A DNA stretch of 64,000 bases from an uncultured Lachnospiraceae bacterium. Lineage in GTDB: Bacteria; Bacillota; Clostridia; Lachnospirales; Lachnospiraceae. The stretch lies in contig CAJTUB010000007.1 of assembly GCA_910579465.1 (NCBI GenBank), forward strand, positions 15,714-79,713, in the 5' to 3' direction. A program made the position numbers and the translations under genes. The notes below the pieces were generated by a model that made no database searches, had not been told where the DNA came from, and saw only the letters and a list, made by a program, of their open reading frames with translations. This document shows, in pieces, positions 6,898 through 57,122 of the stretch (its first letter is position 1; every line of letters begins with the position of its first letter).

Positions 6898-7173
6898 TCT
6901 GCCGCGGTAACAGGGAAACGTTGACAAAGGCGCGTCCCAATCTTCATAAATAGATATTCCGGGGGTGCCGCCCGATGGAGAAACGTTCTCTGTCGGAGTG
7001 GCAGCCCTGTTTTTATACGCGCGGTTTTGCATTTTGTATGCCGTATTCCGGGACATTTAAGACCGCTGGAAAAATAGTCTGAAATTATCACTGCGGGGAT
7101 TGACGGCATAAAAACCTCATGTTACGATAAAGGGAGCAGGGGAGAATGCCCTGCTAAAGAGAGAGGAGACACC

Positions 7174-10242: not shown

Positions 10243-11124
10243 ATGGAAACCATAATTGACGAGTTTTGCAATTACCGCAGGGAAAAAAAGCAGGTTTCGG
10301 AAAATACGCTGTTAGCGTACCGTTCGGATTTGCAGCGGCTTGTTTCCTACATGCGTGAAAACGGAATCCCGTCTTTTGCGCAGGTGACGGAAACGCAGTT
10401 AAATTCCTTTATTCTGCAGACAGAACGCAGAGGTTTAAAGGCGGCTTCTGTTGTACGCCTGGTATCGAGCATCCATACCTTTTTTGACTATCTGGCAAAG
10501 CGCGGCTATATTAAGGAAGACCCGGCGGAGCGTCTGAAGGCGCCGAAGGCAGAGCAGGCGGTACAGGAGATTATTTCGGTGGAAGAGCTGGAGCGCCTGT
10601 TTGAGATGCCGGATTTGTCCGGGCCGAAGGGGATGCGTGACCGTGCGATGCTGGAGGTTTTGTATGCAACCGGAATCCGGCTGAATTCTCTTTTAAAGCT
10701 TACGATGTCGCAGCTGCAGCTTCAGTACCGGCTCCTTTGCGTCCGGGAACAGGGGGAGGAGCGGGTGCTTCCTTTAGGGAAGACCGCCTGCGAAAGACTG
10801 GAAGCATATCTGAAGGATGCGAGACCGGTGCTTGCCGTGCCGGACTCCGACCCGGAGCTTGTTTTTTATAACAGGGCGGGAGGAATGATGACCAGACAGG
10901 GATTTTTCAAGCGGATTACCATGTATGCCGAAAAAGCGGGACTCCCGAACATTACGCCCCGCGTTCTGCGCAATTCCATGATTACGCATTTAATGAGCAA
11001 CGGGGCGTCCTATGCGGGAGTCCATCAGTTACTTGGCACGAAGCGCCTGTCTGCGGCAATGAACTACCAGAAGCAGACGCAGAGTATACCGGAGCTGTAC
11101 CGGCAGGCACATCCGAGAGCATGA
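10243..11124 (+). CDS. XerD-like tyrosine recombinase homolog with substituted catalytic residues
   Basis: Collinear with XerD through the C-terminal HPRA. ATGIR (Arg I) and the terminal NY (Tyr) are kept, but REQGEER replaces GKGNKER, TPRVLR replaces PHxLR, and LLGT replaces LLGH. Confidence 0.8.
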   Translation: METIIDEFCNYRREKKQVSENTLLAYRSDLQRLVSYMRENGIPSFAQVTETQLNSFILQTERRGLKAASVVRLVSSIHTFFDYLAKRGYIKEDPAERLKAPKAEQAVQEIISVEELERLFEMPDLSGPKGMRDRAMLEVLYATGIRLNSLLKLTMSQLQLQYRLLCVREQGEERVLPLGKTACERLEAYLKDARPVLAVPDSDPELVFYNRAGGMMTRQGFFKRITMYAEKAGLPNITPRVLRNSMITHLMSNGASYAGVHQLLGTKRLSAAMNYQKQTQSIPELYRQAHPRA

Positions 11125-21476: not shown

Positions 21477-22031
21477 ATGGAGGATGAACAAATCGTGGCG
21501 CTGTACTGGGAGCGTTCCGAGACGGCAATCAGGGAAACTGCGGCAAAGTATGAAAATTACTGCTATTCGATTGCATTCGGGATTTTAAAGAACCGCGAGG
21601 ACGCAAATGAAAGCGTGAACGATACCTGGCTCGATGCCTGGAACAGCATGCCGCCGCACAGGCCCTTTGCCCTCTCTACATTTCTGGGGAAGCTTACAAG
21701 GCGGGTATCCATTGACCGGTGGCGGCGCTATACGGCAAAAAAGCGGGGCGGCGGCGAAATGGCATATCTGCTTTCGGAGCTTACGGAATGCGTTCCGGCG
21801 GAGCGTACCGTGGAGCGGGACTGGGAGCTTTCCGAGCTTGCCCGCACGGTAAATGACTTTCTTCTGTCGCTGCCGGAAGAAAAGCAGAGGGTATTTTTAT
21901 GCCGCTACTGGTATGCCGATTCCGTTTCTTCGATTGCAAAACGGACAGGCTTCAGCCAAAGCAAGGTAAAATCCATGCTGTATCATAGCAGGAAGGCGTT
22001 GCGGGAGCATCTGGACAAGGAGGGATTTTAA
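21477..22031 (+). CDS. ECF-type sigma-70 family RNA polymerase sigma factor
   Basis: ATG at 21477 follows GGAGGG. It has region 2 (ESVNDTWLDAW) and a region 4 HTH (SIAKRTGFSQSKVKSMLYHSRKAL). Confidence 0.85.
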   Translation: MEDEQIVALYWERSETAIRETAAKYENYCYSIAFGILKNREDANESVNDTWLDAWNSMPPHRPFALSTFLGKLTRRVSIDRWRRYTAKKRGGGEMAYLLSELTECVPAERTVERDWELSELARTVNDFLLSLPEEKQRVFLCRYWYADSVSSIAKRTGFSQSKVKSMLYHSRKALREHLDKEGF

Positions 22032-23452
22032 TGAAACGGGTAAAGCCGGAGGATATTTTAGATGCGGTGGGGATGGTGGACGACAAACTGATAGGCCGGG
22101 CAAGGGAAGGGAAAAAGAAGCCGTTTTTCAAAAGGAGGGCGTTCCTTCCGGCAGTGGCTGCCGTGCTGGTGCTTTCTCTCGGCATCGGTCTGTTCTTTGG
22201 GAGAGGGCGGCTTTTGTTACATGCGTATGCAATCGCGGAGGCGGAGTATCCGACGATGTGTCCGTATCCGGAGAGCCAGTCTTATTCTAAGGAGTTGGAG
22301 GATTGGCTGGACAGCAGGGAGGCACAGCTGTCCGGGTACGATGAAGGCATGGCGCCGGATGGATTTTTTGCGGAGAGTATCCGGGAGTTTCTTTCGGAAA
22401 GACCGGGAGAGAACTGCGCCTATTCCCCGGTTAATGTCTATATGGCGCTCAGTATGCTGGCAGAGCTTACGGATGGAACAAGCCGTGCGCAGATACTGGG
22501 GCTGCTTGGCATACCCGATATCGAAACGCTGCGCGAAAACGCATCGGCGGTCTGGAATGCGTGCTACTGCGACGACGGGTGGATGACCAGCGTGCTTGCC
22601 AATTCCCTGTGGCTGAACCGGGACATCCGCTTTCATAAGGAAACACTGGAGACACTGGCAGAGACTTATTATGCGTCCTCTTATTGCGGCAGAATGGGCT
22701 CCGAAAGCATTGACAAGGCGTTAAGGGAATGGATGAACCAGCAGACCGGCGGACTGCTCCGTGACAGTATTGACGGGCTGCATCTGGACCAGCCAACCTT
22801 GCTTTCCCTGGTTTCCACGGTCTTTTTTCAGGCGGAATGGTGGAGCGGTTTCCCGAAAGAGAAAACGGAGCAGGGAACCTTTTATGCGCCTGCCGGAGAG
22901 GTTACCTGTGATTTTATGGGCCAGAAGGAAGATGATACCTATTACTGGGGAGATACCTTTTCTGCGGTACAGAAGGGGTTACGGGGCGGCTGCAAAATGT
23001 GGTTTATCCTGCCGGATGAGGGTATGACGCCGGAGGAGCTGCTTTCGGAGCCGGAGGCAATGGAGTTTTTGCTTTCCGACGGCGTATGGGAGAACCAGAA
23101 ACGACTTTCGGTTCGGTTTGTCGTGCCGAAGTTTGATATCAGTTCGGAAACGGATCTGATCGAAGGTCTGAAAAAGCTCGGCGTAACGGAAATCTTTGAT
23201 GGCAGGGCGGCAGATTTTTCCCCTCTTATAAGAGATACAGGGGAAGAACGGATTTCCGGTGCGCAGCATGCGGTAAGGGTGCAAATCGATGAGAAGGGCT
23301 GCTCGGCGGCGGCTTATACAAAGCTGGATCTGACGAAGGACGGTATGCCGTTAACAGATAATATTGACTTTATCGTAAACCGGCCGTTTTTGTTTGTCAT
23401 TACTTCGGAGGTGGGACTGCCGTTATTTACCGGCATCGTAAATACGCCGTAG
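22031..23452 (+). CDS. Membrane-anchored serpin (N-terminal anti-sigma-like segment, TM helix and serpin domain)
   Basis: The start overlaps the sigma stop (TAATG). TM helix FLPAVAAVLVLSLGIGLFFG. Serpin motifs are YSPVNVYMALSMLAELT, hinge EKGCSAAAYT and NRPFLFVI. Confidence 0.85.
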   Translation: MKRVKPEDILDAVGMVDDKLIGRAREGKKKPFFKRRAFLPAVAAVLVLSLGIGLFFGRGRLLLHAYAIAEAEYPTMCPYPESQSYSKELEDWLDSREAQLSGYDEGMAPDGFFAESIREFLSERPGENCAYSPVNVYMALSMLAELTDGTSRAQILGLLGIPDIETLRENASAVWNACYCDDGWMTSVLANSLWLNRDIRFHKETLETLAETYYASSYCGRMGSESIDKALREWMNQQTGGLLRDSIDGLHLDQPTLLSLVSTVFFQAEWWSGFPKEKTEQGTFYAPAGEVTCDFMGQKEDDTYYWGDTFSAVQKGLRGGCKMWFILPDEGMTPEELLSEPEAMEFLLSDGVWENQKRLSVRFVVPKFDISSETDLIEGLKKLGVTEIFDGRAADFSPLIRDTGEERISGAQHAVRVQIDEKGCSAAAYTKLDLTKDGMPLTDNIDFIVNRPFLFVITSEVGLPLFTGIVNTP

Positions 23453-23515
23453 CAGGCGCAGCGGTCCTTCAGACTTCCAGAATGTCAGATGCACAAAATG
23501 CGGAGCTCAAGGAGA
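23378..23515 (+). repeat. Left direct repeat (functional 3' end of the serpin gene plus downstream DNA)
   Basis: 23378-23474 aligns without gaps to 32614-32710, with 8 mismatches in 97 nt by hand count. Similarity resumes at the 17-nt box. Confidence 0.85.
23495..23511 (+). repeat. 17-nt box variant (AAAATGCGGAGCTCAAG) at the end of the left direct repeat
   Basis: It is one nt shorter than the consensus, the same variant as at 32763-32779. Confidence 0.6.
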
Positions 23516-23534
23516 TATTATTGGTAGAAATAAA

Positions 23535-23567
23535 GGGGACTGTCACTCAAAGTGTGGTCCCTTTTTA
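23535..23567 (+). terminator. Intrinsic terminator downstream of the serpin gene
   Basis: GGGGACTGTCAC-loop-GTGTGGTCCC followed by TTTTT. Confidence 0.6.
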
Positions 23568-23655
23568 CAAGTGGAGGATTGGTAAATAGAATTGTGTGGT
23601 CAGAGATATTCCATGAATATGAGTAGATATGTTTAAAAATGTAGAAATTTAGGAC

Positions 23656-23684
23656 TTGACATTATTTTACATTTATGTAATAAT
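23656..23684 (+). promoter_or_regulatory. Candidate sigma-A promoter of the island operon
   Basis: TTGACA, a 17-nt spacer, then AATAAT with TG at the extended -10 position. It lies about 85 nt upstream of the rSAM start. Confidence 0.5.
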
Positions 23685-23770
23685 AAGGCAATAAACATTA
23701 TATGCATTTTTGGGAAAGAGTGAGATAGCGCATTTGTATATTGAAACTTGATGTAAAAGGGAGGAGTAAA

Positions 23771-25099
23771 ATGAATTATAAGTATTCAATGTTTAACTAC
23801 TTTTTTACAGTAAATGACCGAAGGTATATATATAATACTATGCAAGGCACGAGAAGCATTTGTGAGATTACAAAAGAACACAACGTAATTTTTGATATAC
23901 TTCAAAGTGAGGATGTTTCAGGGATTAATCCTGAATTTCGTGAAATATTGATTGATAAAGGAATTCTTGTACAAGACGAAATTGATGAAATAAGCAAAAG
24001 AAATGTTTTATGTGCTAAAACAGTAAATGATGGGGTTCTACGTTTGGTAATTCATACGACAAAGCGATGTAACTTTAGGTGTAAATATTGTTGTTTAGAC
24101 TTTGAAGATGAAGACTTATCTATTGAAATGCAAGACAACATCTTTAGGTTTATTAAACATAATATTATAAATTATCAGGTTGTAGATGTTAATTGGTTTG
24201 GTGGAGAACCATTAATGAATGTAGATGCAATTATTAATTTATCATCTAAAATAAAGGATATTTGTAAAAACGTTGGTAAGATATATAAAAGCTCAATAAC
24301 AACTAATGGATACCTTTTATCAGAAAAAGTGGTAAACAGGCTGGTTAATGTCGGAGTTACTATTTTTTTTGTTACTTTGGATGGTTTGCCTGAATATCAT
24401 GATAAATTAAGGGTGTTGACAAATGGGGAGGGTACATATAACAAAATATATCAAAATCTTCTCAATATAAAAAAATTTCATTCCGCTAAGATAAAGGTTA
24501 ATATAAGAACTAATTTCACACGTGATATGATGGGAAATTATCAGAAAATATATAGAAACTTATCGAATGCCTTTGGAGATGACAGGAGATTTGCCTTATA
24601 CTTCAGAAGCGTTGTAGATTCAGGTGGAGAGCGAATTAATCAGATGAAAAACCAGATTTTAAATGGAAGACAAATTAATGAACTTGAAAATAATCTTGCC
24701 AGTATTAATGATGGGACAATAAATTATGATACAAATTATTATTCACTTGAACCAGGCGGATTTATTTGTCCTGCTATGAAATGTGGTAAATATACAATAG
24801 ATACTTGTGGAAAAGTATATAAATGTGATGTATTATCTGAAGAAACGGAACTTGGTTATTTGAATAGTTATGGGAAGATTGTTTATTGCAATTCTTGTGA
24901 AGAAAACTGGGTTGGAATAGCATTTAAATTTTTTGAAAGATGTGAGAATTGTCCGGTTAGTCCACTTTGCTTTAAAGGGGTATGTCCTATGCAAGAATTG
25001 ATAAATGGAGAAAAATTGTGTATTTTAGATTCCAGAGATAATAAATTAGATGGATTACTTGCTATGTTTGTTGCATCAAATAAGATTGAGGTGATTTAA
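23771..25099 (+). CDS. Radical SAM/SPASM-domain peptide-modifying enzyme (candidate RiPP maturase)
   Basis: ATG at 23771 follows AAGGGAGGAG. Motifs are CNFRCKYC (CX3CX2C) and WFGGEPL, plus C-terminal Cys clusters CPAMKC, CGKVYKC and CENCPVSPLCFKGVC. An N-terminal extension of about 90 aa precedes the core. Confidence 0.88.
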   Translation: MNYKYSMFNYFFTVNDRRYIYNTMQGTRSICEITKEHNVIFDILQSEDVSGINPEFREILIDKGILVQDEIDEISKRNVLCAKTVNDGVLRLVIHTTKRCNFRCKYCCLDFEDEDLSIEMQDNIFRFIKHNIINYQVVDVNWFGGEPLMNVDAIINLSSKIKDICKNVGKIYKSSITTNGYLLSEKVVNRLVNVGVTIFFVTLDGLPEYHDKLRVLTNGEGTYNKIYQNLLNIKKFHSAKIKVNIRTNFTRDMMGNYQKIYRNLSNAFGDDRRFALYFRSVVDSGGERINQMKNQILNGRQINELENNLASINDGTINYDTNYYSLEPGGFICPAMKCGKYTIDTCGKVYKCDVLSEETELGYLNSYGKIVYCNSCEENWVGIAFKFFERCENCPVSPLCFKGVCPMQELINGEKLCILDSRDNKLDGLLAMFVASNKIEVI

Positions 25100-25102
25100 T
25101 AA

Positions 25103-25330
25103 GTGGATATAAAACAGATTGTAATTGAGTGCTTAAAGGAATATGGAATTATTATTCAAGATGAAATTGATGAAAATACACCTTTTACTGATTATGGAAT
25201 GGATTCATTGATTTATATGATGCTTATATGTGATTTGGAAGAAAATCTTTCGAAGGAGTTTCTGGATTATTCATTATTAAGTCTGGAGAATATGTCAGTT
25301 AGTAAATTAGTATCTCTTATTGAAAACTGA
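25103..25330 (+). CDS. Acyl/peptidyl carrier protein-like small acidic protein
   Basis: GTG at 25103 follows GAGGTGA, 4 nt after the rSAM stop. 75 aa with FTDYGMDSLIYMMLICDLEE, matching ACP helix II (GxDSL). Confidence 0.75.
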   Translation: MDIKQIVIECLKEYGIIIQDEIDENTPFTDYGMDSLIYMMLICDLEENLSKEFLDYSLLSLENMSVSKLVSLIEN

Positions 25331-25399
25331 ATGGACTGTATTGATATCCTGTAATTGTGGGATATTTTTATGGTTAATTTATATGAGGAGGTGAATATT

Positions 25400-25513
25400 A
25401 TGAGGAAGATTAGTATTAAGAAGAACCAGAAGACAAAAGTTAATAAGGTTGTTTTTGCTGGTCCGAGACCATGTAATGGTTACAAAGATGAATGCACGCC
25501 ATCATCAAAATAA
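25400..25513 (+). CDS. Candidate precursor peptide, 37 aa (MRKISIKKNQKTKVNKVVFAGPRPCNGYKDECTPSSK)
   Basis: This ORF is below the track's size cutoff. GAGGAGGTGA lies 6 nt upstream of the ATG. The peptide is Lys-rich at the N-terminus with two Cys at the C-terminus, and a perfect hairpin follows. Confidence 0.65.
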   Translation: MRKISIKKNQKTKVNKVVFAGPRPCNGYKDECTPSSK

Positions 25514-25562
25514 TTTGTATTGCAGAATCCTTAGAGAATACTTATGTTTTAGGTATGGTGTG

Positions 25563-25602
25563 CAATTCTGCCCTTTGGACTTTCATCCAAAGGGCAGAAT
25601 TG
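25563..25602 (+). terminator. Perfect 17-bp stem-loop after the peptide gene (attenuator or RNA stabiliser; no U tract)
   Basis: CAATTCTGCCCTTTGGA, loop cttcca-sized (cttt ca, 6 nt), then TCCAAAGGGCAGAATTG. It is followed by TCAACAAAT rather than a T run. Confidence 0.55.
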
Positions 25603-25673
25603 TCAACAAATAAAATAAGTCAATTCCGTAATTAATAGTGAAATAGATATGTTGCAGGATTTAGGAGATAGTA

Positions 25674-27392
25674 ATGGGAAATATAGTTCATCTTTTTCAC
25701 CGGGTATGCAGAATCAATCGGTTTTATTTCATTCCATTTTTTGTGACGGAGATAGTTTCTTTGGGAATTAAAGTAATTCAGATTCTTTTTCCTAAAAGGT
25801 TATTTGTCGGATTAAATGAAGGTGCTACCCACGTATTGATTCTGAATATTGTTCTTTATCTCGGGGTTCTCGGAATCTTGAATTGTGCCCGAATTATATC
25901 AGAGCATTATAAAGAAAAGAATAGCTTATTAGTAAAAACTTGCTTAAGTGCAGATTTATATGAAGCAAACTGTGTTTCTAAATTTGCTGATTTTGAGAAG
26001 TACGAGGCACGTAAGAAATTTGAGCTTGCGAAAGAAGGCTTGCAAAAGGGAAACATTGCTATGATGATTGATAATGTAGTAATGTGTTTCTCTAATATTG
26101 TTTTTATCATTTCTGTTTCCTATGTATTCCACTATCTGAGCTGGTGGATTTCAATAGTAATGCTTATTTCGGTGCTGATTAATACGGCATGCGAGTATTT
26201 TCGTGTGAAATATGATTATGATTGCTATGAAAAATACAAAGAAGTAAATATGAAGATGGTGTATTCCAGGGATAAACTGACATGGAAGCAATTTGGAAAA
26301 GAAATTCGTTTATTTGGATTGTACGACTATGTATCGAATATAGCGGAAAAATATATAAATGAACTGTCGGCGATACAGAAAAATAAAAGCAAAAGAATAT
26401 TTTTAGTTTACTTTTTACTCGGATTATATGATATGTTACAACGCTTTTTGCTGATTGCTTATATTGTATGGTTGTGTTCGGTCGGCAGGGTTTCCATAGA
26501 AGATTTTACATCGTTGATTGTTGCTGTAATTGCATGTTTTTCTGCCGTAAACGATAACGCAAAGCTTATTGTAAAACTTGGTGAATCCGTAAAATATGTA
26601 AATTGCTATTTTGAGCTGATGAATGCTTCAATATGCAATAAGTTTGAGATGAAAGAACAGATTACCCGTTTTCAGAAGATAAAAATCAGTAATATGAAAT
26701 TTACATATCCAAACTCGCAGAGTGAAACCTTGAGGGGGATTTCTGTGACATTTGATGCAGGGAAAAAATATGGTATTGTTGGAAAAAATGGTAGCGGAAA
26801 AACCACATTTATTAAGCTTCTTTTAGGTTTATATGAGGTTCCTGAAGGAGTAATAACCTTGGATTGCCGTGATAAAACAGAATATCATTGTGATGAATGG
26901 TATTCAATGTTTTCAGCGGTATTGCAGGACTTCAATGTGTATGCATATACACTGGGAGATAATATTTCCATGTTATCAGAAATGAATAAGGACATTTCTT
27001 TTGATGGATTAGAGATAGATGGCGTTTCTTTGGATGATTATTTATCTGCAGAATACGGAGAGGGACATGACGTTTCTGGCGGGGAAGCGCAAAAAATAGC
27101 AATTATGCGTGTGCTCTTTCATAAGGCACCGGTTGTTATACTTGACGAACCTACGGCTGCATTATCTCCAGACGGGGAAATCAGGTTTTATGAAGAAGTA
27201 AAAACGAGATTTTGTGACAGGACGCTTTTTTTGGTGTCTCACAGGCTGGCAAGTTGTAAACTGTGTGATAATATACTTGTTTTTGACAAAGGACAAATCG
27301 TCGAAAATGGAACCCATGATGATTTGATGAAAAAGAAAGGTTTGTATTATGAGATGTATTCTTCCCAAAAAGATTTGTATGCGTGTAAATGA
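25674..27392 (+). CDS. ABC exporter half-transporter (TMD-NBD)
   Basis: Six predicted N-terminal helices. Walker A GKNGSGKTT, signature VSGGEAQK, Walker B VVILDEPT. No C39 peptidase domain. Confidence 0.88.
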   Translation: MGNIVHLFHRVCRINRFYFIPFFVTEIVSLGIKVIQILFPKRLFVGLNEGATHVLILNIVLYLGVLGILNCARIISEHYKEKNSLLVKTCLSADLYEANCVSKFADFEKYEARKKFELAKEGLQKGNIAMMIDNVVMCFSNIVFIISVSYVFHYLSWWISIVMLISVLINTACEYFRVKYDYDCYEKYKEVNMKMVYSRDKLTWKQFGKEIRLFGLYDYVSNIAEKYINELSAIQKNKSKRIFLVYFLLGLYDMLQRFLLIAYIVWLCSVGRVSIEDFTSLIVAVIACFSAVNDNAKLIVKLGESVKYVNCYFELMNASICNKFEMKEQITRFQKIKISNMKFTYPNSQSETLRGISVTFDAGKKYGIVGKNGSGKTTFIKLLLGLYEVPEGVITLDCRDKTEYHCDEWYSMFSAVLQDFNVYAYTLGDNISMLSEMNKDISFDGLEIDGVSLDDYLSAEYGEGHDVSGGEAQKIAIMRVLFHKAPVVILDEPTAALSPDGEIRFYEEVKTRFCDRTLFLVSHRLASCKLCDNILVFDKGQIVENGTHDDLMKKKGLYYEMYSSQKDLYACK

Positions 27393-27465
27393 TAATTTAA
27401 AGCTTTTAAAAGGTAGTGTATAAACTTTTTGATGTATGGTTATACACTTAATAAGGAGGAAAGGA

Positions 27466-29241
27466 ATGAAAAGGAGAAGATTACTTAGTAGTCTGCTGAA
27501 AGAAAGCATAAGGGTAGCTCCGGGTAATTTTATTGCTATTTCTGTTTCTACTGTTTTATCCGGACTTGCAACTGTGCTTTCTACCTTTTTTCCTGCGTTG
27601 CTCATTGATTGTCTGGTGTCGGCGAAGGGAAATAGGATAATTTTGTTTTATATTCTTGCCTATTCTGTTATCTTATGTCTTGTGGAAATCAGTCATAAGG
27701 CAGCCTCTTTGTATAGTACGGCAACCGGATATAGGGCAAATAACATTGCAACATTGAGAATACAACAAAAGGCTATGCGTATCTCATATGATAGCTGGGA
27801 TTCGCCTGAACATTTTCAAAAAATCAAACAGGCTGTAAATTCTTCCTGGGTATTTCAGACAATAACAGATGCTGTTTGCGGAAGTCTGCTTTCTGCAGTT
27901 ATAATATTGCTGCCAGCAATCTATATTGTTAGTAGAATTCACATATTGCTTTTTGTTTTTTTGTTGCTTCTTATTTTGATAGAAATGCGTATTGAAGAGA
28001 AATTTGATGAAAAGAAGTATGCGATTGAGGATCAGGTTATAGCACTTCAGAAGAAATCTGACTATGACGAGAAAGTGTTAACTGAAATGAAATACGGAAA
28101 AGAAGTCCGGCTTTTTAAGATGAAAGATGGTCTGATTCATCGTTATCTGGCAGACAGGAAAAAAGAAAATAACAGGAGGATAGATCAAGGCAGGGTATCG
28201 GTTCAATTTACTCTTATTTCATTACTTTTTTCTACTATTGAAGCAATCATTGTTTATCTCTTTGCAATTATCAAATACAATTGCGGGGAGGTCAATATTG
28301 CAGACTTTTTTGCATATGTAGGTGCAGTCATGCTTTTGGTTGAAGCTGTCAAGCAAATCGGATGGGCAAAAAACTGGATAAAAGATATATTGAATTACTA
28401 TGTATTTTATTATGAGTTTATGCAGACAAAAGAGGAAGAGAAAGAAAAAAGACTGAAAGAGAAGATTCAGGAAGGAGAAGACTCAGGAGAGGAAGAGCCA
28501 TTACTTCAAATGAATCATGTAAGCTATCAATATGAAAATGCTGTCGGATATGCGCTGGATGATATCTGCTTGAAAATAAACAAGGGAGAAAAGGTTGCCA
28601 TTGTCGGTGAAAATGGAGCCGGAAAATCGACTTTGGTAAAAACAATGCTTCATTTGTATGATAATTATTCGGGAGATATCTGTTATAAGGGAAAGAATAT
28701 CAGAGATATACCTGTAAAAGATTACTACACGAGATTATCGTCGGTATTTCAGGATTATTTTCTTCATGCCTTTTCTATAAGGGAGAATATAACTTTTGAT
28801 AAAGAGACTGACAAGGAAAGACTGCATAAATTATTCTTACAATATGATCTGGTTCATGTTTTAGAACCTTTGGAAAAAGGAATTGATACATGGTATTCCA
28901 AAGAATTGTGTGAAGATGGAATAGAACTGTCAGGAGGAGAGTGCCAAAAACTAGCTACCGTGCGTGGCTTATATAAAGATGCGGATATTCTCGTATTAGA
29001 TGAATCAACTGCGGCTCTTGATCCGATAGCAGAAAAGAAGTATTACGATACTCTTTTTGAAAATGTTGAACAAACAACTATTTTTATTACACATCGAATG
29101 GCAAGTACTAGGAAAGCTAATAAAATTATAGTAATTGACAAAGGAAAGATTGCTGAAACCGGTACATTTGATGAGTTATATTCGAGGCATGAATTGTTTT
29201 ATTCTTTTTTTTCTAAGCAGGCAGAGTTATACGAGGAGTAA
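27466..29241 (+). CDS. ABC exporter half-transporter (TMD-NBD), probable heterodimer partner
   Basis: ATG at 27466 follows AAGGAGGA. Walker A GENGAGKST, signature LSGGECQK, Walker B ILVLDEST. Confidence 0.88.
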   Translation: MKRRRLLSSLLKESIRVAPGNFIAISVSTVLSGLATVLSTFFPALLIDCLVSAKGNRIILFYILAYSVILCLVEISHKAASLYSTATGYRANNIATLRIQQKAMRISYDSWDSPEHFQKIKQAVNSSWVFQTITDAVCGSLLSAVIILLPAIYIVSRIHILLFVFLLLLILIEMRIEEKFDEKKYAIEDQVIALQKKSDYDEKVLTEMKYGKEVRLFKMKDGLIHRYLADRKKENNRRIDQGRVSVQFTLISLLFSTIEAIIVYLFAIIKYNCGEVNIADFFAYVGAVMLLVEAVKQIGWAKNWIKDILNYYVFYYEFMQTKEEEKEKRLKEKIQEGEDSGEEEPLLQMNHVSYQYENAVGYALDDICLKINKGEKVAIVGENGAGKSTLVKTMLHLYDNYSGDICYKGKNIRDIPVKDYYTRLSSVFQDYFLHAFSIRENITFDKETDKERLHKLFLQYDLVHVLEPLEKGIDTWYSKELCEDGIELSGGECQKLATVRGLYKDADILVLDESTAALDPIAEKKYYDTLFENVEQTTIFITHRMASTRKANKIIVIDKGKIAETGTFDELYSRHELFYSFFSKQAELYEE

Positions 29242-29247
29242 AAAATA

Positions 29248-31035
29248 ATGTATTTAGTTGATGTTGTGGTCGTAGATACCGGATTTACCAATCAAACAAA
29301 CAGTAATATTTGCTACAAAATTGAAGGATTGGGTATTGTAAGAAGGGGAAAATCATATTCCATAGTTTCGGATTATTTCGATGAAAAGAATCATGGTACA
29401 GGGGTAGTAGGCATTATATTTCAGCATGTTCCTAATGTGTCGTGTCTGGTTATAAAACTTGCAAATCCAGATGTTATTATTGAAGATATACTGTTTGCGC
29501 TTCAGTATATAATTGATAATGTGTCTTGTAAGTTTGTTAATCTTAGTTTTGGGATTTCTTTAGTTGATGATTATAGAAAAATTGACCAACTTGATGAATT
29601 ATGTAAAAAAATTGATGAAAAAGGAACTGTTATTGTTTCAGCATATAGCAATAATGGTGGAATTACTTATCCTGCTGCGTTTGAATCGGTAATAGGAGTT
29701 ACAACAGGAGAAGAATGTCATCGCATTGATGATATTCGGTATGTGTCACATAATGTAGTTAATTTTTGTGCGAAAGGAAATAATCAGCCAGTATTATCAG
29801 CAGAAGGTAATGGAAGAATTGTCAGAAGTGGCGATAGTTATGCTTGTGCACATGTGACAGGTATATTTTTAACAAAATATCAGCCATTAAAAAAACGGCA
29901 GGATTATTTAAATGATTTTGGGGATAAAAAGGGTTGTAAAGAAAAAGTTATTGATCAAGAGTATTTGATGATGGAAGAATGGAAAAATAAGTTGACAGGG
30001 AAGAAGTGTGCACTTCTATTTTGGGGAAAAGAAATGCATTCAATTGTACGTTTTTCCGAAGAGGCGATAGTTAATTTGATTGCGGTATATGATATGCGGC
30101 AACAGGGCAATATAGGCAGGGATGTATTTGAACTGATCAGAAATGAGAAGCGAGGTATTGTGATTGAAGATTATTTGAAAATGGATTTTTCCAAATTCGA
30201 AGTTCTTGTGATTGGTCATATTATTTCAGAATATTTGAGTGTCAATGTACTTAATTCATTAAAGAAAATTTACGCTCAATGTGTAGAAAATAATATTATA
30301 ATTTATTCTTTTGAGGAGATAGATAAATATATTGATGTTGATAAAAATACTTATTTTTGTCCAACAAGAATTAGAATATTGAGCCCTTATGAGAATTATG
30401 GTAAATTATTCCCTATTTCAACGCCAATTGTAGGAGTATTTGGTACAAGTTCGTCACAAGGTAAATTTTTTATTCAATTATCAATGAGACGCTTATTACG
30501 TAAAAAAGGATATGATGTTGGGTTTTTAGGAACAGAGCCAACATCACTTTTGTTTGGTGCAGATGATTTGTTCTCGTTTGGTTTTCATTCGAATTTGGGA
30601 GAAGATGGGTATTCCACAATTGTTACCTTAAATGAGATGCTTCATAGAATTGATGTGAAGAACAAAGATATAATAATTGTAGGATGCCAATCTGTAATTT
30701 TGCAAAATGTATATGAAAATATAAAAAACTACACAATAAAGCAAATAAATTTTTTGTTGGGAACGTTGCCTGATGTGTTTGTATTATGTGTAAACTATTA
30801 TGATACTACAGAATATGTAAAGAGGACAATAATGTTTTTAGAGTCGATGACAAATAATAAAGTTAAGAGTATTGTAATTTCTCCAGTAAATCGATCTGCG
30901 AAGGATTGCCCGTTAAGTCAAGGTAAGAAAGGGAAATATATATATCAAGTTACAAAGATATGTAATATTCCAGTAATTGATTCGCTAAAGGATAACTGGT
31001 GCAAAAATTTATTATTACAAATTGGTGTAGTTTGA
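29248..31035 (+). CDS. Subtilisin-like S8 peptidase domain fused to a C-terminal domain of about 370 aa and unknown family
   Basis: The catalytic triad motifs are VVVDTGF (Asp), NHGTGVVG (His) and GDSYACAHVTG (Ser). There is no signal peptide or prodomain. The C-terminal part contains VGVFGTSSSQGKFF (P-loop-like). Confidence 0.8.
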   Translation: MYLVDVVVVDTGFTNQTNSNICYKIEGLGIVRRGKSYSIVSDYFDEKNHGTGVVGIIFQHVPNVSCLVIKLANPDVIIEDILFALQYIIDNVSCKFVNLSFGISLVDDYRKIDQLDELCKKIDEKGTVIVSAYSNNGGITYPAAFESVIGVTTGEECHRIDDIRYVSHNVVNFCAKGNNQPVLSAEGNGRIVRSGDSYACAHVTGIFLTKYQPLKKRQDYLNDFGDKKGCKEKVIDQEYLMMEEWKNKLTGKKCALLFWGKEMHSIVRFSEEAIVNLIAVYDMRQQGNIGRDVFELIRNEKRGIVIEDYLKMDFSKFEVLVIGHIISEYLSVNVLNSLKKIYAQCVENNIIIYSFEEIDKYIDVDKNTYFCPTRIRILSPYENYGKLFPISTPIVGVFGTSSSQGKFFIQLSMRRLLRKKGYDVGFLGTEPTSLLFGADDLFSFGFHSNLGEDGYSTIVTLNEMLHRIDVKNKDIIIVGCQSVILQNVYENIKNYTIKQINFLLGTLPDVFVLCVNYYDTTEYVKRTIMFLESMTNNKVKSIVISPVNRSAKDCPLSQGKKGKYIYQVTKICNIPVIDSLKDNWCKNLLLQIGVV

Positions 31036-31108
31036 TAGGAATTTGTTGTATATGAAAGATAAACAGTAGTATTTGAATTTGAAATTGTTCTTAAGGAGGA
31101 GAATCATT

Positions 31109-32614
31109 TTGAGAAAAGAAGAAATGATGGAATTGCCGTTATCATCAAAACCAAGTATTATAACGTGCATTCATCAAGCATATCCGTGTGCAATTATTGA
31201 AAGCAAAGAATTGGCGTCGATTATAATTATAGACAAAAATAAAGACAAATGGTGTCAAACTACCCAAAATACAATAGTAGAAGAAAAAAATAATAGAATA
31301 CTAATTTCTCAAAAGGAGGAGATGGATGATTCTGCCACAGTTTTATGGAAGTCTTGTAAGTGTGAAGAAGAAATTGAGATTTACATTGAATATTTTAAAG
31401 AAATGGATAATAATCGATACATGGACATTTTTTTGTTTGATGATTTGCAAGAAGAATGTTTGTTGCAAGATAAAAACTTCGGGATTCGTTGGAATCAATA
31501 TGGATTGTTTGTGAAAAAAGAGATGTATGGATATAATACTAAAATTTTTAGATATATTAAATTTTATCGTAAAAATAATAGTATAAGTTGCTTTGTTTCG
31601 ATGGACGGAAAAGAATGGATTAATTTTACAAATAGAAAGATACCAAAAGAATGGGAAGATTTTGATTTAAAAATAGGGATTCATTTTGATTTTGGGTTTA
31701 ATACATTTTATATTTGGAAAAAAATGAATTTGATTCAATTAGCATATAATACAAGTGATCCATGCAAGGGAATTTTGTTAGATTATTTTGTGATTCCAAG
31801 GAAAAATTATGACAATAGCTACAATTGGTTTTCTAATTATCTTGAAACTATTTATGATACAATATATGAAATATCTGATCTTTTTACTAATATTCATGAG
31901 TATATACAGTGGAATATAAGTCATGGTTATTATGTTAATATTGCATTAGATGAGTTTTTCGTTCCTGAAAGATCAAGTTATAAAAAAGAACATTATCAAC
32001 ACTATAATTTATTTTTTGGATATGATAATTATGCCAAAAAGTATAAAATTATGGGATATGGAAAGCAAAGCAAACCGTTTATAAGCGAATTGTCTTATGA
32101 AGAACTGTCAGAAGAAATAGTTACAAGTGATAAAATAGTTCGTTATAAGTATGTAATTAATAATAATGTTAATATGAAATTTTGTATCTCTATAATAATT
32201 TCCGGGTTAAGAGAGTTTATTATGGGAGAAAATACAAGTTACAAATATGCGAATCTGCTCACTGAAAAGCCGATGATATATGGTATTTCAATTTTTCCAT
32301 ATTTGATTGAGAATGAACAAGGAAGGAAAGAAATTCGTATTGATACTAGAATTTCTTTTTGTATCTTGGAGCATAGTAAGTTAATGAAAGAACGAATTGA
32401 CTATTTATTTAAGAAAAAGTACATTTCTCAGGAACAATATCCAAGATTTGATTTTTTAATAATGGAAATCAATAAATTAGCAGAAGGTTTATTGAAAATA
32501 ATTATAAAAAATAAAGTGAAACCAATATATGATGATAGGATAGATGAAATGTTGAAAAAGTTATATAATGAGTATAATACTTTTTGTAAGGAATTAATAT
32601 CGACGTTATCCTGA
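31109..32614 (+). CDS. Hypothetical protein of about 500 aa, family not recognised
   Basis: AAGGAGGA (31093-31100) precedes an in-frame TTG at 31109 and an ATG at 31124. The ORF is long and AT-rich. It has no catalytic motif I can name. Confidence 0.7.
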   Translation: MRKEEMMELPLSSKPSIITCIHQAYPCAIIESKELASIIIIDKNKDKWCQTTQNTIVEEKNNRILISQKEEMDDSATVLWKSCKCEEEIEIYIEYFKEMDNNRYMDIFLFDDLQEECLLQDKNFGIRWNQYGLFVKKEMYGYNTKIFRYIKFYRKNNSISCFVSMDGKEWINFTNRKIPKEWEDFDLKIGIHFDFGFNTFYIWKKMNLIQLAYNTSDPCKGILLDYFVIPRKNYDNSYNWFSNYLETIYDTIYEISDLFTNIHEYIQWNISHGYYVNIALDEFFVPERSSYKKEHYQHYNLFFGYDNYAKKYKIMGYGKQSKPFISELSYEELSEEIVTSDKIVRYKYVINNNVNMKFCISIIISGLREFIMGENTSYKYANLLTEKPMIYGISIFPYLIENEQGRKEIRIDTRISFCILEHSKLMKERIDYLFKKKYISQEQYPRFDFLIMEINKLAEGLLKIIIKNKVKPIYDDRIDEMLKKLYNEYNTFCKELISTLS

Positions 32615-32688
32615 ACCGGCCGTTTTTGTTTGTCATTACTTCGGAGGTGGGACTGCCGTTATTTATCGGCATTGTAAATACACCGTAG
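32614..32688 (+). pseudogene. Orphan 3' fragment of the serpin gene (last 24 codons plus stop)
   Basis: It translates as NRPFLFVITSEVGLPLFIGIVNTP*. It has 3 nt differences from 23378-23452, one of them non-synonymous (T to I). Confidence 0.85.
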
Positions 32689-32762
32689 CAGGCACAGCAC
32701 TCCTTTGGACAAATGCAAAATAAGATGCGATACCGCCGGCGGAACTTTTTTCGGGTGACTCA

Positions 32763-32779
32763 AAAATGCAGAGCTCAGG
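32763..32779 (+). repeat. 17-nt box variant (AAAATGCAGAGCTCAGG) at the end of the right direct repeat
   Basis: It lies 11 nt upstream of the -35 of the SNF2 promoter. Confidence 0.6.
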
Positions 32780-32790
32780 GAGAAATCCAG

Positions 32791-32819
32791 TAGAAAAAAT
32801 CCCGGAAATATGGTATACT
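32791..32819 (+). promoter_or_regulatory. Candidate promoter of the SNF2 helicase gene
   Basis: TAGAAA, a 17-nt spacer, then TATACT with TG at the extended -10 position. The 17-nt box lies 11 nt upstream. Confidence 0.5.
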
Positions 32820-32909
32820 TTGGGGGAAGGCGTTTGACTTTGCCGGAAGGCAGAGTCATCTGCCTTCCTGGATACTACATGGTTACTGTGTTTTTGAGAG
32901 GGGCTGCCG

Positions 32910-35900
32910 ATGATACGATTAAGCAGAAGAAAAATTCAGATTCTTGCCGCCGACGAAGCGGTGTTTCAGCGCGGGCTTGCCTATTTCAAGGAAAAACGCG
33001 TGCTTCATGCCGCCTGCTCCAAAGACCGGAAGATTTACAGCTTTACCGTCCAGGGAAAGCAGAAGTACCATGTTACGATAGAAGAAACGAAGGAACACGA
33101 TATTGAATTTTCCTGCAACTGTCCTGTGCTGTATATGCAGAAGGGCGCCTGTAAGCATACGGTAGCGGCGCTGCTGCATTTGCTGCAGTATCAGGAGCAG
33201 GAAGAACAGGGGATTCATCTTGTGATGCCGAAGGACATGCGCGTCCACAAGATAGTCCGGTATTTTATCAACGCCCAGGAACAGCAGTATAAGAAGGAAA
33301 TATACCGCGTGGAGCCCTGCATCGAGGTTCCGGCGCTTTTGCGGGAAGAAAACGACCCGGTGTATCTGTCGCTTCGTGTCGGAAGCACGAAACTATACCG
33401 TGTACAAAGATTAAAGCGTTTTCTTACGGAATATAAGAAAAACGAAACGATTGCGCTTGGAAAGGAGTTTTGCTATGTTCCGGAGGAAAGTGAGTTTGAC
33501 CATGCCTCCGTGCAGCTTCTGCAGGAGCTGGTTTCTTATGCCGAGGTTCTGGAGCTTGTCGACGGAAAAAATAGTATGAAGCTGTTCCAGAAGTCTAAAA
33601 TTGTTTTAAACCGGAATCTTCTGACCAGGGTTCTGAAGCTGTGCCGGAATCTCCCGTTTATCCTGAAGCTGTCGGAAACGGAACTGGACAATGTACGTTT
33701 TGTGCAGGGAAATCCACCGATTGAGTATGATATTTTTATGCAGGAAGGCTCTGTCAGCATGAATTATAAGGAGCAGGAGCATGTCATCCCGATTGCGGCA
33801 GACGGTTCTCTTTTACTGCGGGATAATGTGCTGTATCTGCCGGAAGAGCGCTTTATGAAAACATATCTGCCGTTTTATTCTACTCTGGGCGATGACAAGG
33901 CGCCGCTTGTCTTTGAAGACGACTATGAGAATGCCTTTCTGGAGTATGTGCTTCCGGTGATACATGAAACGCTTCAGGTAGAAGTGCCGGAGGAGGTACA
34001 TGCAAGATATGTCACCCTTCCGTTTTCTGCAAAGGTGTATTTTGATTTGTTTCATTCCGCAGTGCGGGCGACGGTGTATTATGTCTATGGTGAATATGAG
34101 TTCAATTCCTTTGAGACCCCGGCGCTTGGCGGAACGATTCTGGTGCGCGAAAAGGAGCAGGAAGCACAGTTGGATGCTCTTTTGGAACGCTATGGGTTTG
34201 AGCCGCACAACGGCTTTTATCTTATGAAAAATGAGGAAGACATTTATGCACTGATTACCGAAGGAATTTCGCTTCTGGCGGAGCATGCCGTGCTTTATTC
34301 CTCTGACGACTTTACGAGAATGCGGACAAAGAGGCATACGAACGTGCAGCTCGGGATAGAAATTCCCTCCGGAGAGGATTTACTTAAGATTGAATTTCAA
34401 TATGATAGCGTTTCTAAGGAAGAGCTGCGCGCGGTTTTTTATTCCTACCGCCAGAAAAAGAAGTACCACCGTTTATCGGACGGCAGTTTTCTTGACCTGA
34501 CGGACGAGTCCTTTATGAAAACCGCTGATTTACTGGAAAGCATGAATCTTTCCTATCGTGATTTTGACAAAAACGGAGATTTGAAGGTGCCGAAAAACTT
34601 TGCGGCTTATCTGGATTTTCTGCCGCAGGAGATGGGGTTTGAGGTTAAAAAGGACAAAAATTTCCAGGCACTTACCAGGCGTCTGCTTTCTCCCGGAAAG
34701 CAGGAGTATGCGGTGCCGGATACGATACATGCCGAACTGAGGGAGTATCAGAAAACCGGATTTTCCTGGCTCAGAATGCTGTCGGATAACGGGTTCGGCG
34801 GAGTGCTTGCGGACGATATGGGACTTGGAAAGACGCTGCAGGCAATTACCTATATGGCTTCCGTATTGAAGGAGGAAAGCTTTTCCGAGGTGCCGTTCCT
34901 GGTGGTCTGCCCGACCTCTCTGCTTTATAACTGGCTTGACGAGGTGGAAACCTATGCGCCGCAGTTCCGTGTCAGGGTAGTCCAGGGAGCGCCGGAAGAG
35001 CGCAGGGAGCTTCTCCGGCATTCGGCGGAATGGGATCTTTGTATTACCTCGTATCCGCTGCTCCGCAGGGATTTGGAGATATACAGAAGAAAACGGTTTC
35101 ATACGGTTTTTATTGACGAGGCGCAGTATATTAAGAATGCCATGACAGGAAATGCCCGTTCGGTAAAGGAGCTTTTCGCTAAGACACGGTTTGCCATGAC
35201 CGGTACGCCGATTGAAAATTCCTTATCCGAGCTCTGGTCGATTTTTGATTTTATTATGCCGGGCTATCTGTTCAGCTATGCGCGCTTTGCCAAACGCTAT
35301 GAACGTCCGGCAATGATGGGGCATACGGAACAGCTGCAGCAGCTGAACCGCCGGATTAAGCCGTTTTTGCTGCGGCGCATGAAAGAGGATGTGCTGTCCG
35401 AGCTTTCGGAAAAAATTGAAACCAAGCTGGTCACCGACCTGACGGAAGAGCAGAGGCTTTTGTATCTTTCTTATGTAAGACAGGCGAGACAGGATATTGC
35501 CGAGGATATCCTGCGTCTTGGCACAGAAAAGAGCCGGATGCAGATTCTTGCGGCTTTGACGAGGCTCCGTCAGATTTGTTGCCATCCGGGGATGTTTTTG
35601 GAAAATTACGGAGGCGGCAGCGGAAAGGCGTCGCTTTTCTTACAGATTATGGATGAGCTTAAAAAAAACGGCCACCGTGTCCTTGTATTTTCCCAGTTTA
35701 CCTCGATGCTGGAAATATTAAAGGACTCTCTGACGGAAGCAGAGTTTTCTTACTTTTATTTGAACGGTGCGACAAAGCCTGCCGACCGGCAGGAGTATGT
35801 AAAGCGGTTTAATGCGGGAGAAGGGGATTTGTTCCTGATTTCCTTAAAAGCAGGCGGCACCGGACTGAACCTGACCGGCGCCGATACGGTGATTCATTTT

Positions 35901-36134
35901 GACCCGTGGTGGAATCCTGCCGTGGAGGAGCAGGCGTCGGACCGCGCGCACCGCATCGGGCAGGAAAAGACAGTCCACATTATAAGACTTCTGACGAAGG
36001 GAACGATTGAGGAAAAAATATTCCGTCTGCAGAAAAAGAAGCAGGATTTGTTCCATGCAGTTATCGAGGAAGGAGAAACCTTCCTCAATAAGCTGTCACC
36101 GGATGAAATCAAAGAGCTGTTCGAGGATATCTGA
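32910..36134 (+). CDS. SNF2-family helicase with an N-terminal SWIM zinc finger
   Basis: SWIM finger CNCPVLYMQKGACKHTVAAL. Helicase motifs LADDMGLGKTLQ, DEAQYIKN and QASDRAHRIGQ. Confidence 0.9.
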   Translation: MIRLSRRKIQILAADEAVFQRGLAYFKEKRVLHAACSKDRKIYSFTVQGKQKYHVTIEETKEHDIEFSCNCPVLYMQKGACKHTVAALLHLLQYQEQEEQGIHLVMPKDMRVHKIVRYFINAQEQQYKKEIYRVEPCIEVPALLREENDPVYLSLRVGSTKLYRVQRLKRFLTEYKKNETIALGKEFCYVPEESEFDHASVQLLQELVSYAEVLELVDGKNSMKLFQKSKIVLNRNLLTRVLKLCRNLPFILKLSETELDNVRFVQGNPPIEYDIFMQEGSVSMNYKEQEHVIPIAADGSLLLRDNVLYLPEERFMKTYLPFYSTLGDDKAPLVFEDDYENAFLEYVLPVIHETLQVEVPEEVHARYVTLPFSAKVYFDLFHSAVRATVYYVYGEYEFNSFETPALGGTILVREKEQEAQLDALLERYGFEPHNGFYLMKNEEDIYALITEGISLLAEHAVLYSSDDFTRMRTKRHTNVQLGIEIPSGEDLLKIEFQYDSVSKEELRAVFYSYRQKKKYHRLSDGSFLDLTDESFMKTADLLESMNLSYRDFDKNGDLKVPKNFAAYLDFLPQEMGFEVKKDKNFQALTRRLLSPGKQEYAVPDTIHAELREYQKTGFSWLRMLSDNGFGGVLADDMGLGKTLQAITYMASVLKEESFSEVPFLVVCPTSLLYNWLDEVETYAPQFRVRVVQGAPEERRELLRHSAEWDLCITSYPLLRRDLEIYRRKRFHTVFIDEAQYIKNAMTGNARSVKELFAKTRFAMTGTPIENSLSELWSIFDFIMPGYLFSYARFAKRYERPAMMGHTEQLQQLNRRIKPFLLRRMKEDVLSELSEKIETKLVTDLTEEQRLLYLSYVRQARQDIAEDILRLGTEKSRMQILAALTRLRQICCHPGMFLENYGGGSGKASLFLQIMDELKKNGHRVLVFSQFTSMLEILKDSLTEAEFSYFYLNGATKPADRQEYVKRFNAGEGDLFLISLKAGGTGLNLTGADTVIHFDPWWNPAVEEQASDRAHRIGQEKTVHIIRLLTKGTIEEKIFRLQKKKQDLFHAVIEEGETFLNKLSPDEIKELFEDI

Positions 36135-57022: not shown

Positions 57023-57048
57023 TCCGCAGTTTTTCTGATAATCCATTA

Positions 57049-57086
57049 CGCAAATTGCGTTAAACTATGGTTTAGCGCAATTTGCG
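57049..57086. repeat. 17-bp inverted repeat with a 4-nt loop
   Basis: CGCAAATTGCGTTAAAC, loop tatg, then GTTTAGCGCAATTTGCG (16 of 17 pairs). It lies between the GHL10 stop and the recombinase start. No U tract. Confidence 0.8.
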
Positions 57087-57122
57087 ATATCGGCTAATCT
57101 ACTATCCCGGAGGTGTTTCCCT

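Follow-up and report, generated by a model that had tools for sequence, protein, structure and literature searches.

In a 64,000-nt stretch of DNA from an uncultured Lachnospiraceae bacterium (positions 15,714 to 79,713 of contig CAJTUB010000007.1, assembly GCA_910579465.1; hereafter the window), a sigma factor gene and a serpin gene are followed by a low-GC island of 9.1 kb, and the island by the gene of a SNF2-family helicase. The island carries a cluster of the kind that makes ribosomally synthesized and post-translationally modified peptides (RiPPs), and it lies between two long direct repeats, each of which contains the 3′ end of the serpin gene. The features are collected in Table 1. Coordinates are positions in the window unless another locus is named, and the island and repeat features are all on the + strand.

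The initial annotation of the window had pointed to an ungapped alignment between 23378-23474 and 32614-32710. Its count of eight mismatches in 97 nt is reproduced exactly (89/97 identical; mismatches at 23430, 23437, 23446, 23458, 23463, 23464, 23470, and 23471), as is the observation that three of them lie in the first 75 nt, one being a change of ACC to ATC (Thr to Ile). The long duplication that it described is real, but the extent it gave is too short. Repeat finding on the window returns 116 nt at 90% identity (23359-23474 / 32595-32710), and a gapped alignment, in which 157 of 177 aligned positions agree and a single indel of 32 nt occurs, carries the repeat to approximately 23359-23535 versus 32595-32803. 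The longest uninterrupted identity is 52 nt (23378-23429 / 32614-32665). The duplicated unit comprises the last 31 serpin codons together with the entire serpin-SNF2 spacer and ends roughly at the -35 element of SNF2; both neighboring genes are left complete beside the repeats: the left copy completes the serpin open reading frame (ORF), and the right copy is an orphan fragment with in-frame stops upstream in the serpin frame.

A 17-nt box had been reported as the same in both repeats. Its location and spacing are right (20 nt beyond the 97-nt block on the left, 52 nt on the right), but the two copies are similar only, with 15/17 positions identical. They are the only matches in the window (23495-23511 and 32763-32779) even when up to three mismatches are allowed, and the box was dismissed as a dispersed motif on that count. 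The left-repeat spacer, which we call X-type, is of window type for its first 22 nt; beyond these, a 12-nt patch and one 32-nt deletion account for most of the difference. In a motif search among the compared loci, the X-type motif TTCCAGRATGTCAGATGC is confined to those that bear the island. The left repeat is also polymorphic among island-bearing strains (contig L022 has A at 23446 and 23458), which fits ongoing exchange or conversion. At the left edge of the island, a predicted stem-loop with a terminal T run is likely a replacement terminator for the serpin gene.

Could this structure be a mis-join at a short repeat in a metagenome-assembled genome (MAG)? The window does match a MAG, and Logan contigs break at the 52-nt block. 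However, independent contigs from NCBI, ENA, and Logan, representing several samples and pipelines, span the left, the right, or both junctions, and the junction-specific sequences are unique; we find an assembly artefact hardly credible. Two Logan contigs of 9244 nt (L022 and L023) were considered as excised circles and rejected, as each equals window 23400-32643 and is a de Bruijn unitig at k=31. Such 9244-nt contigs recur in several samples, and their ends are assembly breaks at the 52-nt block.

Table 1. Features of the serpin-SNF2 locus and of the island, in window coordinates
Feature	Position	Strand	Details
ECF-type (extracytoplasmic function) sigma factor gene, left host flank	21477..22031	+	Pfam Sigma70_r2/r4; 1-nt overlap with serpin start
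Serpin gene, insertion target	22031..23452	+	473 amino acids; PF00079, E 1.4e-59; last 31 codons in left repeat
Left direct repeat	23359..23535	+	Serpin 3′ end 23359-23452, host-type; then diverged spacer copy 23453-~23535
52-nt identical block	23378..23429	+	Candidate substrate for repeat-by-repeat crossing-over
X-type spacer (left repeat)	23453-~23535	+	Lacks 32 nt; box at 23495-23515
Stem-loop with terminal T run, island left edge	23532..23565	+	-16.7 kcal/mol, z -2.6 (RNA fold); conserved in L019
Promoter-like site, island operon	23656..23684	+	TTGACA-17-AATAAT with TG; 11/12 consensus matches; consensus match alone
Radical SAM/SPASM RiPP maturase (SAM, S-adenosylmethionine)	23771..25099	+	442 amino acids; PF04055
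Acyl-carrier-protein-like protein	25103..25330	+	75 amino acids; PF00550, E 5.5e-7
Candidate precursor peptide MRKISIKKNQKTKVNKVVFAGPRPCNGYKDECTPSSK	25400..25513	+	37 amino acids; GAGGAGG ribosome-binding site; hairpin downstream
ABC (ATP-binding cassette) exporter subunit 1	25674..27392	+	572 amino acids; PF00005; MsbA- and bacteriocin-exporter-like
ABC exporter subunit 2	27466..29241	+	591 amino acids per public assemblies; PF00005
S8 protease (subtilisin-like) fused to DUF1611/TIGR04066-like peptide-maturation domain	29248..31035	+	595 amino acids
ORF7, conserved RiPP-cluster protein	31109..32614	+	501 amino acids
Right direct repeat	32595..32803	+	Orphan serpin 3′ fragment 32595-32688 (NIDVILNRPFLFVITSEVGLPLFIGIVNTP, then stop) and native-type spacer
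Native-type spacer of right repeat		+	Box at 32763-32783
SNF2 promoter-like site	32791..32819	+	TAGAAA-17-TATACT with TG; intact right of island; kept in all empty sites
SNF2-family helicase gene, right host flank	32910..36134	+	1074 amino acids; PF08455, PF00176, PF00271

Occupied and empty sites in related genomes

We compared 29 loci. The exact serpin protein occurs on 24 mouse-gut contigs, with the island downstream in every place listed that reaches past the serpin gene. Among the loci retrieved, the nearest relative with a name is an uncultured Lachnospiraceae MAG. Island-free loci with conserved serpin/SNF2 synteny (L009-L013 and L027-L029) come from three species: the window's own species (species A: L010 and L027, 97-98% identical to the window overall), species B (L011, L012, L013, L028, and L029; ~87% identical), and a third species (L009). 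In six of them, from all three species (L010, L027, L028, L029, L011, and L009), there is one serpin 3′ end with the SNF2 promoter immediately after it, which makes the duplication part of the island's insertion. The repeats had initially been tied to the island as a target duplication, a link that would fail if island-free strains carried both copies; none of the six does. The X-type spacer is the native spacer of no island-free genome among the 29 loci. In L009 the serpin-SNF2 spacer is far shorter (CAGGCGCATCTTTTGGAGAAATCC, L009 11426-11460), and ~70-75 nt including the box are missing relative to the window type.

The island is also present in species B, in the genome L019 (Logan SRR29185113), where both of its junctions are those of the window. 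Between the window and L019 the island is 95-98% identical in nucleotide sequence, with a synonymous divergence (dS) of 0.05-0.21 over six genes, whereas the flanks are 83-90% identical, with dS values of 0.34 (sigma), 0.43 (serpin), and 0.56 (SNF2). The island copies are therefore much younger than their hosts, and at least one transfer between species is needed. The repeat segments that are not under selection (the spacers of the left and right copies and the orphan coding fragment) differ by 16-20% between the two lineages according to alignment counts, which is close to the dS of the island and as expected if the repeats travelled with it and drifted neutrally.

The junctions of L019 can be read against the empty sites of its own species. 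As far as the serpin stop codon, L019 shares 99.4-99.5% identity with L028 and L029, the last mismatch being at L019 2390, and it is again near-identical to them from 11677, at AAATCCAGTAG of the SNF2 promoter. In between, the island has no counterpart in the empty sites, and the aligned right-repeat stretch (L019 11497-11676) shows dense mismatches to them. The native B-type spacer, CAGCCTGGAATGC...GACAAATCC, is missing from L019, and in its place are an X-type spacer, the island, and a complete right repeat whose spacer half is of window type (CAAATGCAAAAATAAGATGC...), not B type. The two crossovers fall in windows of 18-19 nt, one at the serpin stop codon and the other in the SNF2 promoter. 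Breakpoints beside conserved flanking genes and an island whose divergence is decoupled from that of its flanks, both seen here, are the marks of a cassette moved by recombination in its flanks.

On this comparison, species B has gained the island and the orphan repeat as one block through two independent crossovers, that is, by homologous replacement, for which there is a precedent at flanking core genes (PMC5635113); its empty sites cannot be excision scars. Acquisition by homologous recombination was among the explanations offered in the initial annotation, and the block replacement of the native spacer supports it directly. Another of those explanations, an element mobilized in trans, is not supported for the case of a site-specific integrase that is still at work: every host should then have a right repeat whose right half is of its own type, and species B does not. 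A reciprocal attP × attB recombination or a Campbell event in a species-B host is ruled against in the same way, since either would leave a B-type right half. The third explanation offered initially, a decayed integrative element, may account for the origin of the repeat.

A wide imported tract in L019 was also considered, because the last 400-600 nt of its serpin gene are 92% identical to those of L011. It was rejected, as most species-B serpins share the C-terminus of L019; L011 is the odd one out, and relative to L028 and L029 the foreign tract spans only the stop codon to the SNF2 promoter. In L011 itself (~7100-7680), the last 400-600 nt of the serpin gene are only ~92% identical to those of the conspecific L019, L028, and L029, and the C-terminal residues are of species A or C type. 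This is a separate recombination tract in an island-free strain, and the serpin 3′ end may therefore be recombination-prone in general. On the other side of the locus, L019 14200-21434 is 87-94% identical to conspecifics from the SNF2 3′ end onward, and after 16046 different genes follow (MatE, a two-component system), matching the third species (L009) at ~93%. Judged from these matches, the L019 neighborhood is a mosaic of several exchanges.

In species A, the natural empty alleles each combine parts of both repeats. L027 is identical to the left repeat as far as 23430 and to the right one from 23437 onward (from 32673 on, the right repeat is identical to L027 except at 32688), and L010 switches repeat type between 23437 and 23446-23471. 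Such hybrids are expected from crossing-over between the repeats at or beside the 52-nt block, and a recipient site before a single-crossover insertion would look just the same. L027 has one mismatch to the window in 23018-23436 and none in 32689-33061, against an average divergence of ~2.4%; L010 has nine in each of these intervals. The near-identity of L027 over ~400 nt on each side of the junction implies that the gain or loss at the repeats is recent in species A. If the repeats are regarded as reciprocal attL and attR hybrids, L027 agrees, whereas the right repeat of species B, with its foreign spacer, does not.

Island genes and the search for mobility functions

The GC content of the island (23516-32594) is 31.5%, compared with 50-53% in the flanks, and GC at third codon positions (GC3) is 0.22-0.33 in island genes, compared with 0.57-0.63 in the flanks (serpin 0.62, SNF2 0.57). 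By its composition the island is foreign, a horizontally acquired, low-GC RiPP biosynthetic cluster; the dS values add that the island has moved between species. The cluster is operon-like, with one strong promoter-like site upstream, and six of its proteins are annotated as biosynthesis or export. The best NCBIfam matches of the radical SAM maturase are TIGR04463, CefB, and the Clo7bot maturases, all under the family cut-offs. The order of the maturase and acyl carrier protein (ACP) genes is the same in a distant cluster (L020). The short ORF that follows them in the window presumably encodes the RiPP precursor. It differs from its L019 counterpart by two substitutions, both synonymous, and at the equivalent position L020 has a Cys-rich gene of 37 amino acids (L020 8176-8289). 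The two candidates have a PCN..GY..C core in common (RPCNGYKDEC in the window, SPCNCRGYCTC in L020). A hairpin, AATTCTGCCCTTTGG...CCAAAGGGCAGAATT, lies downstream of the candidate in the window.

The last gene of the island, ORF7, has no family match in Pfam, NCBIfam, or PHROGs. Its last five to six codons and its stop lie within the start of the right repeat, the end reading TCC TGA in the window and GCG TAA in L019. Its homologues (37-49% identical) are found only beside radical SAM, PqqD, and ACP genes and small Cys-rich ORFs. In an AlphaFold (AF2) model with a pLDDT (predicted local distance difference test) of 81.5, an N-terminal lectin/SPRY-like beta sandwich precedes a domain that Foldseek matches to AziU3/U2 (8gs1, 7wuw; E 1e-6) and CcbD (7yn2; E 5e-4). 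AziU3/U2 and CcbD are natural-product biosynthetic enzymes of the azinomycin and lincosamide pathways, and CcbD uses a substrate bound to a carrier protein. We considered ORF7 as a hidden recombinase and rejected this on the AziU3/CcbD-like fold and the RiPP-only genomic context. The predicted fold, the adjacent ACP-like gene, and the S8-DUF1611 fusion together suggest an uncharacterised RiPP tailoring chemistry, and with its radical SAM maturase the cluster would represent an uncharacterised RiPP type.

As had been noted initially, no recombinase lies between the repeats: searches of the island ORFs with Pfam, NCBIfam, and PHROGs detect no recombinase, transposase, relaxase, or excisionase, and the one protein without a family has the fold of a biosynthetic enzyme. 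The non-coding gaps of the island measure 255 and 343 nt and leave no room for an integrase remnant, and no integrase is found within 10 kb on either side. Rfam gives no family match in 21-34 kb. A transposon was rejected, given the lack of a transposase and of an inverted repeat at the island ends, and a duplication of ~180-210 nt.

Tyrosine recombinases in the window are limited to a XerD-like and a XerS-like one. The XerD-like gene (10243-11124, ~13 kb left of the island) scores 237 bits against TIGR02225, whose cut-off is 329.6, and has the look of a housekeeping gene, not of an island integrase. The XerS-like gene (57123-58181) has an imperfect palindrome just upstream (ACGCAAATTGCGTTAAACTATGGTTTAGCGCAATTTGCG, 57049-57087). 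The cumulative GC skew reaches its peak at ~57-58 kb, where the orientation of the genes also turns from + to -. To judge from these features, the 57000-58750 region is probably a replication terminus with a dif-type site. The streptococcal difSL pattern has no match in the window, a weak test of dif, as the host may use another dif sequence. Next to the XerS-like gene, just past the skew switch, an AAA_14/DUF4143 ATPase gene on the - strand (58734-59960; GC ~40-44%) may be part of a small accessory segment. The island lies ~25 kb from the skew turning point and the XerS-like gene, and its membership among the integrative mobile elements exploiting Xer (IMEX) was dropped in view of its distance from the terminus and the missing difSL match. 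Also dropped was the resemblance of ACTTCCAGAAT in the left spacer to the Bacillus dif site, which is loose (7/11 and 4/11 arm matches by eye).

Exact and 90%-cluster look-ups show the island solely at the serpin-SNF2 site. Searches based on ORF7 find it on no JGI metagenome contig and no IMG/VR viral contig, and PLSDB plasmids hold no close relative, just partial matches of 28-30% identity in Bacillus and Paenibacillus. No other element at the serpin site appears in the ORF7 searches or among close serpin relatives. A circle junction, defined as a right-repeat-specific left part, 85-95 nt, and a left-repeat-specific right part, has no match in JGI metagenome contigs, which is a weak negative from one exact-pattern search of assembled contigs.

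These searches bear on the possibility that the island is a site-specific element, either trans-mobilized or similar to the cis-mobilizable elements (CIMEs). The repeats would then be functional attL and attR sites with a core in the serpin 3′ end, and the integrase would be encoded elsewhere. The "att-like signature" of the initial annotation is a fair description of the anatomy; as a statement of function it is putative. A restored gene 3′ end with an element-supplied terminator is typical of the targets used by ICEs (integrative and conjugative elements), IMEs (integrative and mobilizable elements), and prophages (e14, PMC13626634; CIMEs, PMC5704250). In both species the left repeat turns from host-type to element-type in the same short stretch, from GTAAATAC to the stop codon, and the entry of ORF7 into the right repeat could mark the deletion of an adjacent int module. 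However, neither the island nor the 10 kb on either side of it holds an integrase or a remnant of one, and the right repeat of species B has the foreign spacer throughout and is no hybrid with a host attB. The homology extends ~80 nt upstream and ~90-120 nt downstream of the putative core, unlike an arm-type attP, all copies occupy one locus in two lineages, and the circle-junction pattern found no match in JGI contigs. We consider a site-specific element unlikely.

The serpin of the host flank has an N-terminal extension of ~60 amino acids with a transmembrane segment and without a Pfam domain. A membrane-anchored serpin thus occupies the usual position of an anti-sigma factor, and the sigma-serpin pair is conserved in all related loci.

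How the island may move and how it arose

The reading that we favor, with moderate confidence, is that this is an integrase-free, horizontally acquired RiPP island, a passive cassette that is gained and lost by homology-dependent recombination, and that the repeat is a relic of one founding insertion. Nothing in the data points to the repeats still serving a dedicated integrase. The island would enter new strains and species by a double crossover in conserved flanks, as seen in species B. Crossing-over between the repeats, with their shared 52-nt block, could remove it or possibly put it back in the form of a circle; the hybrid empty allele suggests such events in species A, where homologous recombination is the likely route. 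The repeat would have formed once, in a host with a window-type spacer, before the two island lineages split, since both lineages share the junctions, the 32-nt deletion, and a T-to-G change at 23369/32605.

Several points weigh against this reading. Both species-B crossovers lie in identity windows of at most 19 nt that adjoin heterology, and the flanks of the two species are ~87% identical. This is a poor substrate for RecA, and homologous replacement then needs an erosion of the flanks or a short-homology pathway. From the narrow foreign tract we infer one of these two, either a later erosion of the imported flanks by within-species recombination or a pathway acting on short homology. The event in species A could be a gain or a loss, as its direction is not readable from the hybrids, and the search for a circle junction returned nothing. 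A single founding event appears from shared junctions in just two island lineages. Finally, the anatomy, with a restored gene 3′ end and a terminator of its own, looks designed, as in elements that carry an integrase.

The short identity windows might instead suggest a "parasitic" mobility of the microcin H47 type, in which some RecA-independent host function acts on short identity segments of long imperfect repeats. The anatomy of our island is nearly that of the microcin H47 island (PMC3191183, PMC5426353), and RecA does not efficiently recombine windows of at most 19 nt. The mechanism proposed for H47 is unproven, however, as its authors could not exclude chimeras of the polymerase chain reaction (PCR; PMC5426353), and the product in species B is a replacement rather than a repeat-by-repeat exchange. 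We regard this mode as very improbable here.

It is tempting to ask whether the portable copy of the target gives the island an address. In such a "homology-addressed" element, the target copy would serve as a homology arm and let the island excise as a circle and re-insert in any related genome through host recombination alone, which may be RecA-dependent or act on short homology, with no dedicated recombinase. If true, this would provide a general, integrase-free way for antimicrobial-peptide clusters to spread between species of gut Firmicutes, but we hold it to be doubtful.

For the founding insertion of a passive cassette, three routes can be envisaged: (a) a site-specific integration in the style of e14, which would have brought the replacement 3′ end and the terminator and later lost its integrase module by deletion, in which case the overlap of ORF7 with the right repeat could be what that deletion left behind; (b) the insertion, by a single crossover, of a circle with its own copy of the target segment; (c) an illegitimate or template-switch insertion that directly duplicated ~200 bp. 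The neat preservation of both neighbor genes and their signals would favor (a) and (b), and the patchy differences of the left spacer, together with the lack of an island-free genome with an X-type native spacer, would favor (c). The alternative that the left spacer is the orthologue of another species was rejected as a weak argument: few sites match L009, the first 22 nt are of window type, and the rest is a patch and a deletion.

Route (c) can also be taken as a full account of the locus, namely an in-situ duplication in which illegitimate or template-switch joining duplicated ~200 bp of the target, with no circle or att site, followed by neutral decay and local rearrangement. The unselected parts (left-copy spacer, orphan coding fragment, and the right spacer of L019) differ by similar amounts, 16-24%, close to the island dS, as such decay predicts; the left spacer shows a patch and a deletion after its first 22 nt rather than even substitutions; and no island-free genome offers an X-type spacer as a source. 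Against this, the duplication keeps both neighbor genes and their signals neatly, and the comparison set of 29 loci is small. To our knowledge, no common bacterial mechanism produces a target duplication of ~200 bp. An in-situ origin of this kind seems to us rather improbable.

Relation to known systems

The locus provides a natural example, from uncultured mouse-gut Clostridia, of a peptide-natural-product cluster crossing species without a mobility gene. Because two species offer both occupied and empty alleles, the breakpoints can be read to ~20 nt. The result lends support to the idea that homologous recombination at conserved flanks is how many biosynthetic and defence cassettes travel, and the 52-nt identical block predicts spontaneous loss of the cluster. 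Current concepts are unchanged; we offer a natural case study and no new principle.

Like other cassettes that recombine through core-gene flanks, the island is accessory, lies between conserved core genes, carries no mobility genes, varies in presence within species, and has its breakpoints in the flanks. Unlike in that model, there is a target duplication, which is neither needed nor predicted there. One kind of cargo or none is seen at the serpin-SNF2 spot, and its status as a hotspot is thus only putative.

The CIMEs of streptococci are defined by att sites that a related ICE or IME recognizes with its integrase (Guedon et al. 2017, PMC5704250). Like them, our island lacks integration and transfer genes and has direct repeats on both sides, placed at a target gene's 3′ end. 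It differs in that no related ICE or IME, remnant, or accretion is seen here, and in that the structure in species B is not a site-specific product. A second parallel is the insertion of e14 and phage 21 in icd, with its icdC pseudogene (Hill et al. 1989, as described in PMC13626634). There too, the element sits in the 3′ end of a protein gene, flanked by a functional gene and, at the opposite end, by an orphan C-terminal fragment, and excision makes a chimeric gene end. Unlike our island, e14 has its own integrase and excises on SOS induction. Furthermore, the functional 3′ end at e14 is derived from the element and the orphan is the host original, whereas here the functional end is host-type in both species.

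Judged by anatomy, the closest known system is the microcin H47 island of E. coli, and this kind of island is already known. The H47 island is a 13-kb RiPP island between imperfect repeats of 148 and 144 bp with 76% identity, and it has no integrase; hybrid empty sites occur in natural strains, and recombination takes place at several identity segments independently of RecA (PMC3191183, PMC5426353). PCR was used to detect its excision and its integration (Azpiroz et al. 2011, PMC3191183; Azpiroz and Lavina 2017, PMC5426353). Both are small chromosomal peptide islands with export genes (9.1 kb here, 13 kb for H47), with long imperfect direct repeats, no integrase or excisionase, and hybrid natural empty sites. 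The differences are that the repeat here holds a functional gene 3′ end, whereas no rebuilding of a gene end has been reported for the H47 repeats; that the transfer to a second species occurred here by flank replacement; and that a radical SAM RiPP cluster in Firmicutes stands against a siderophore-microcin cargo in Proteobacteria. The serpin-SNF2 island may be viewed as a Firmicute counterpart to the little-understood microcin H47 island.

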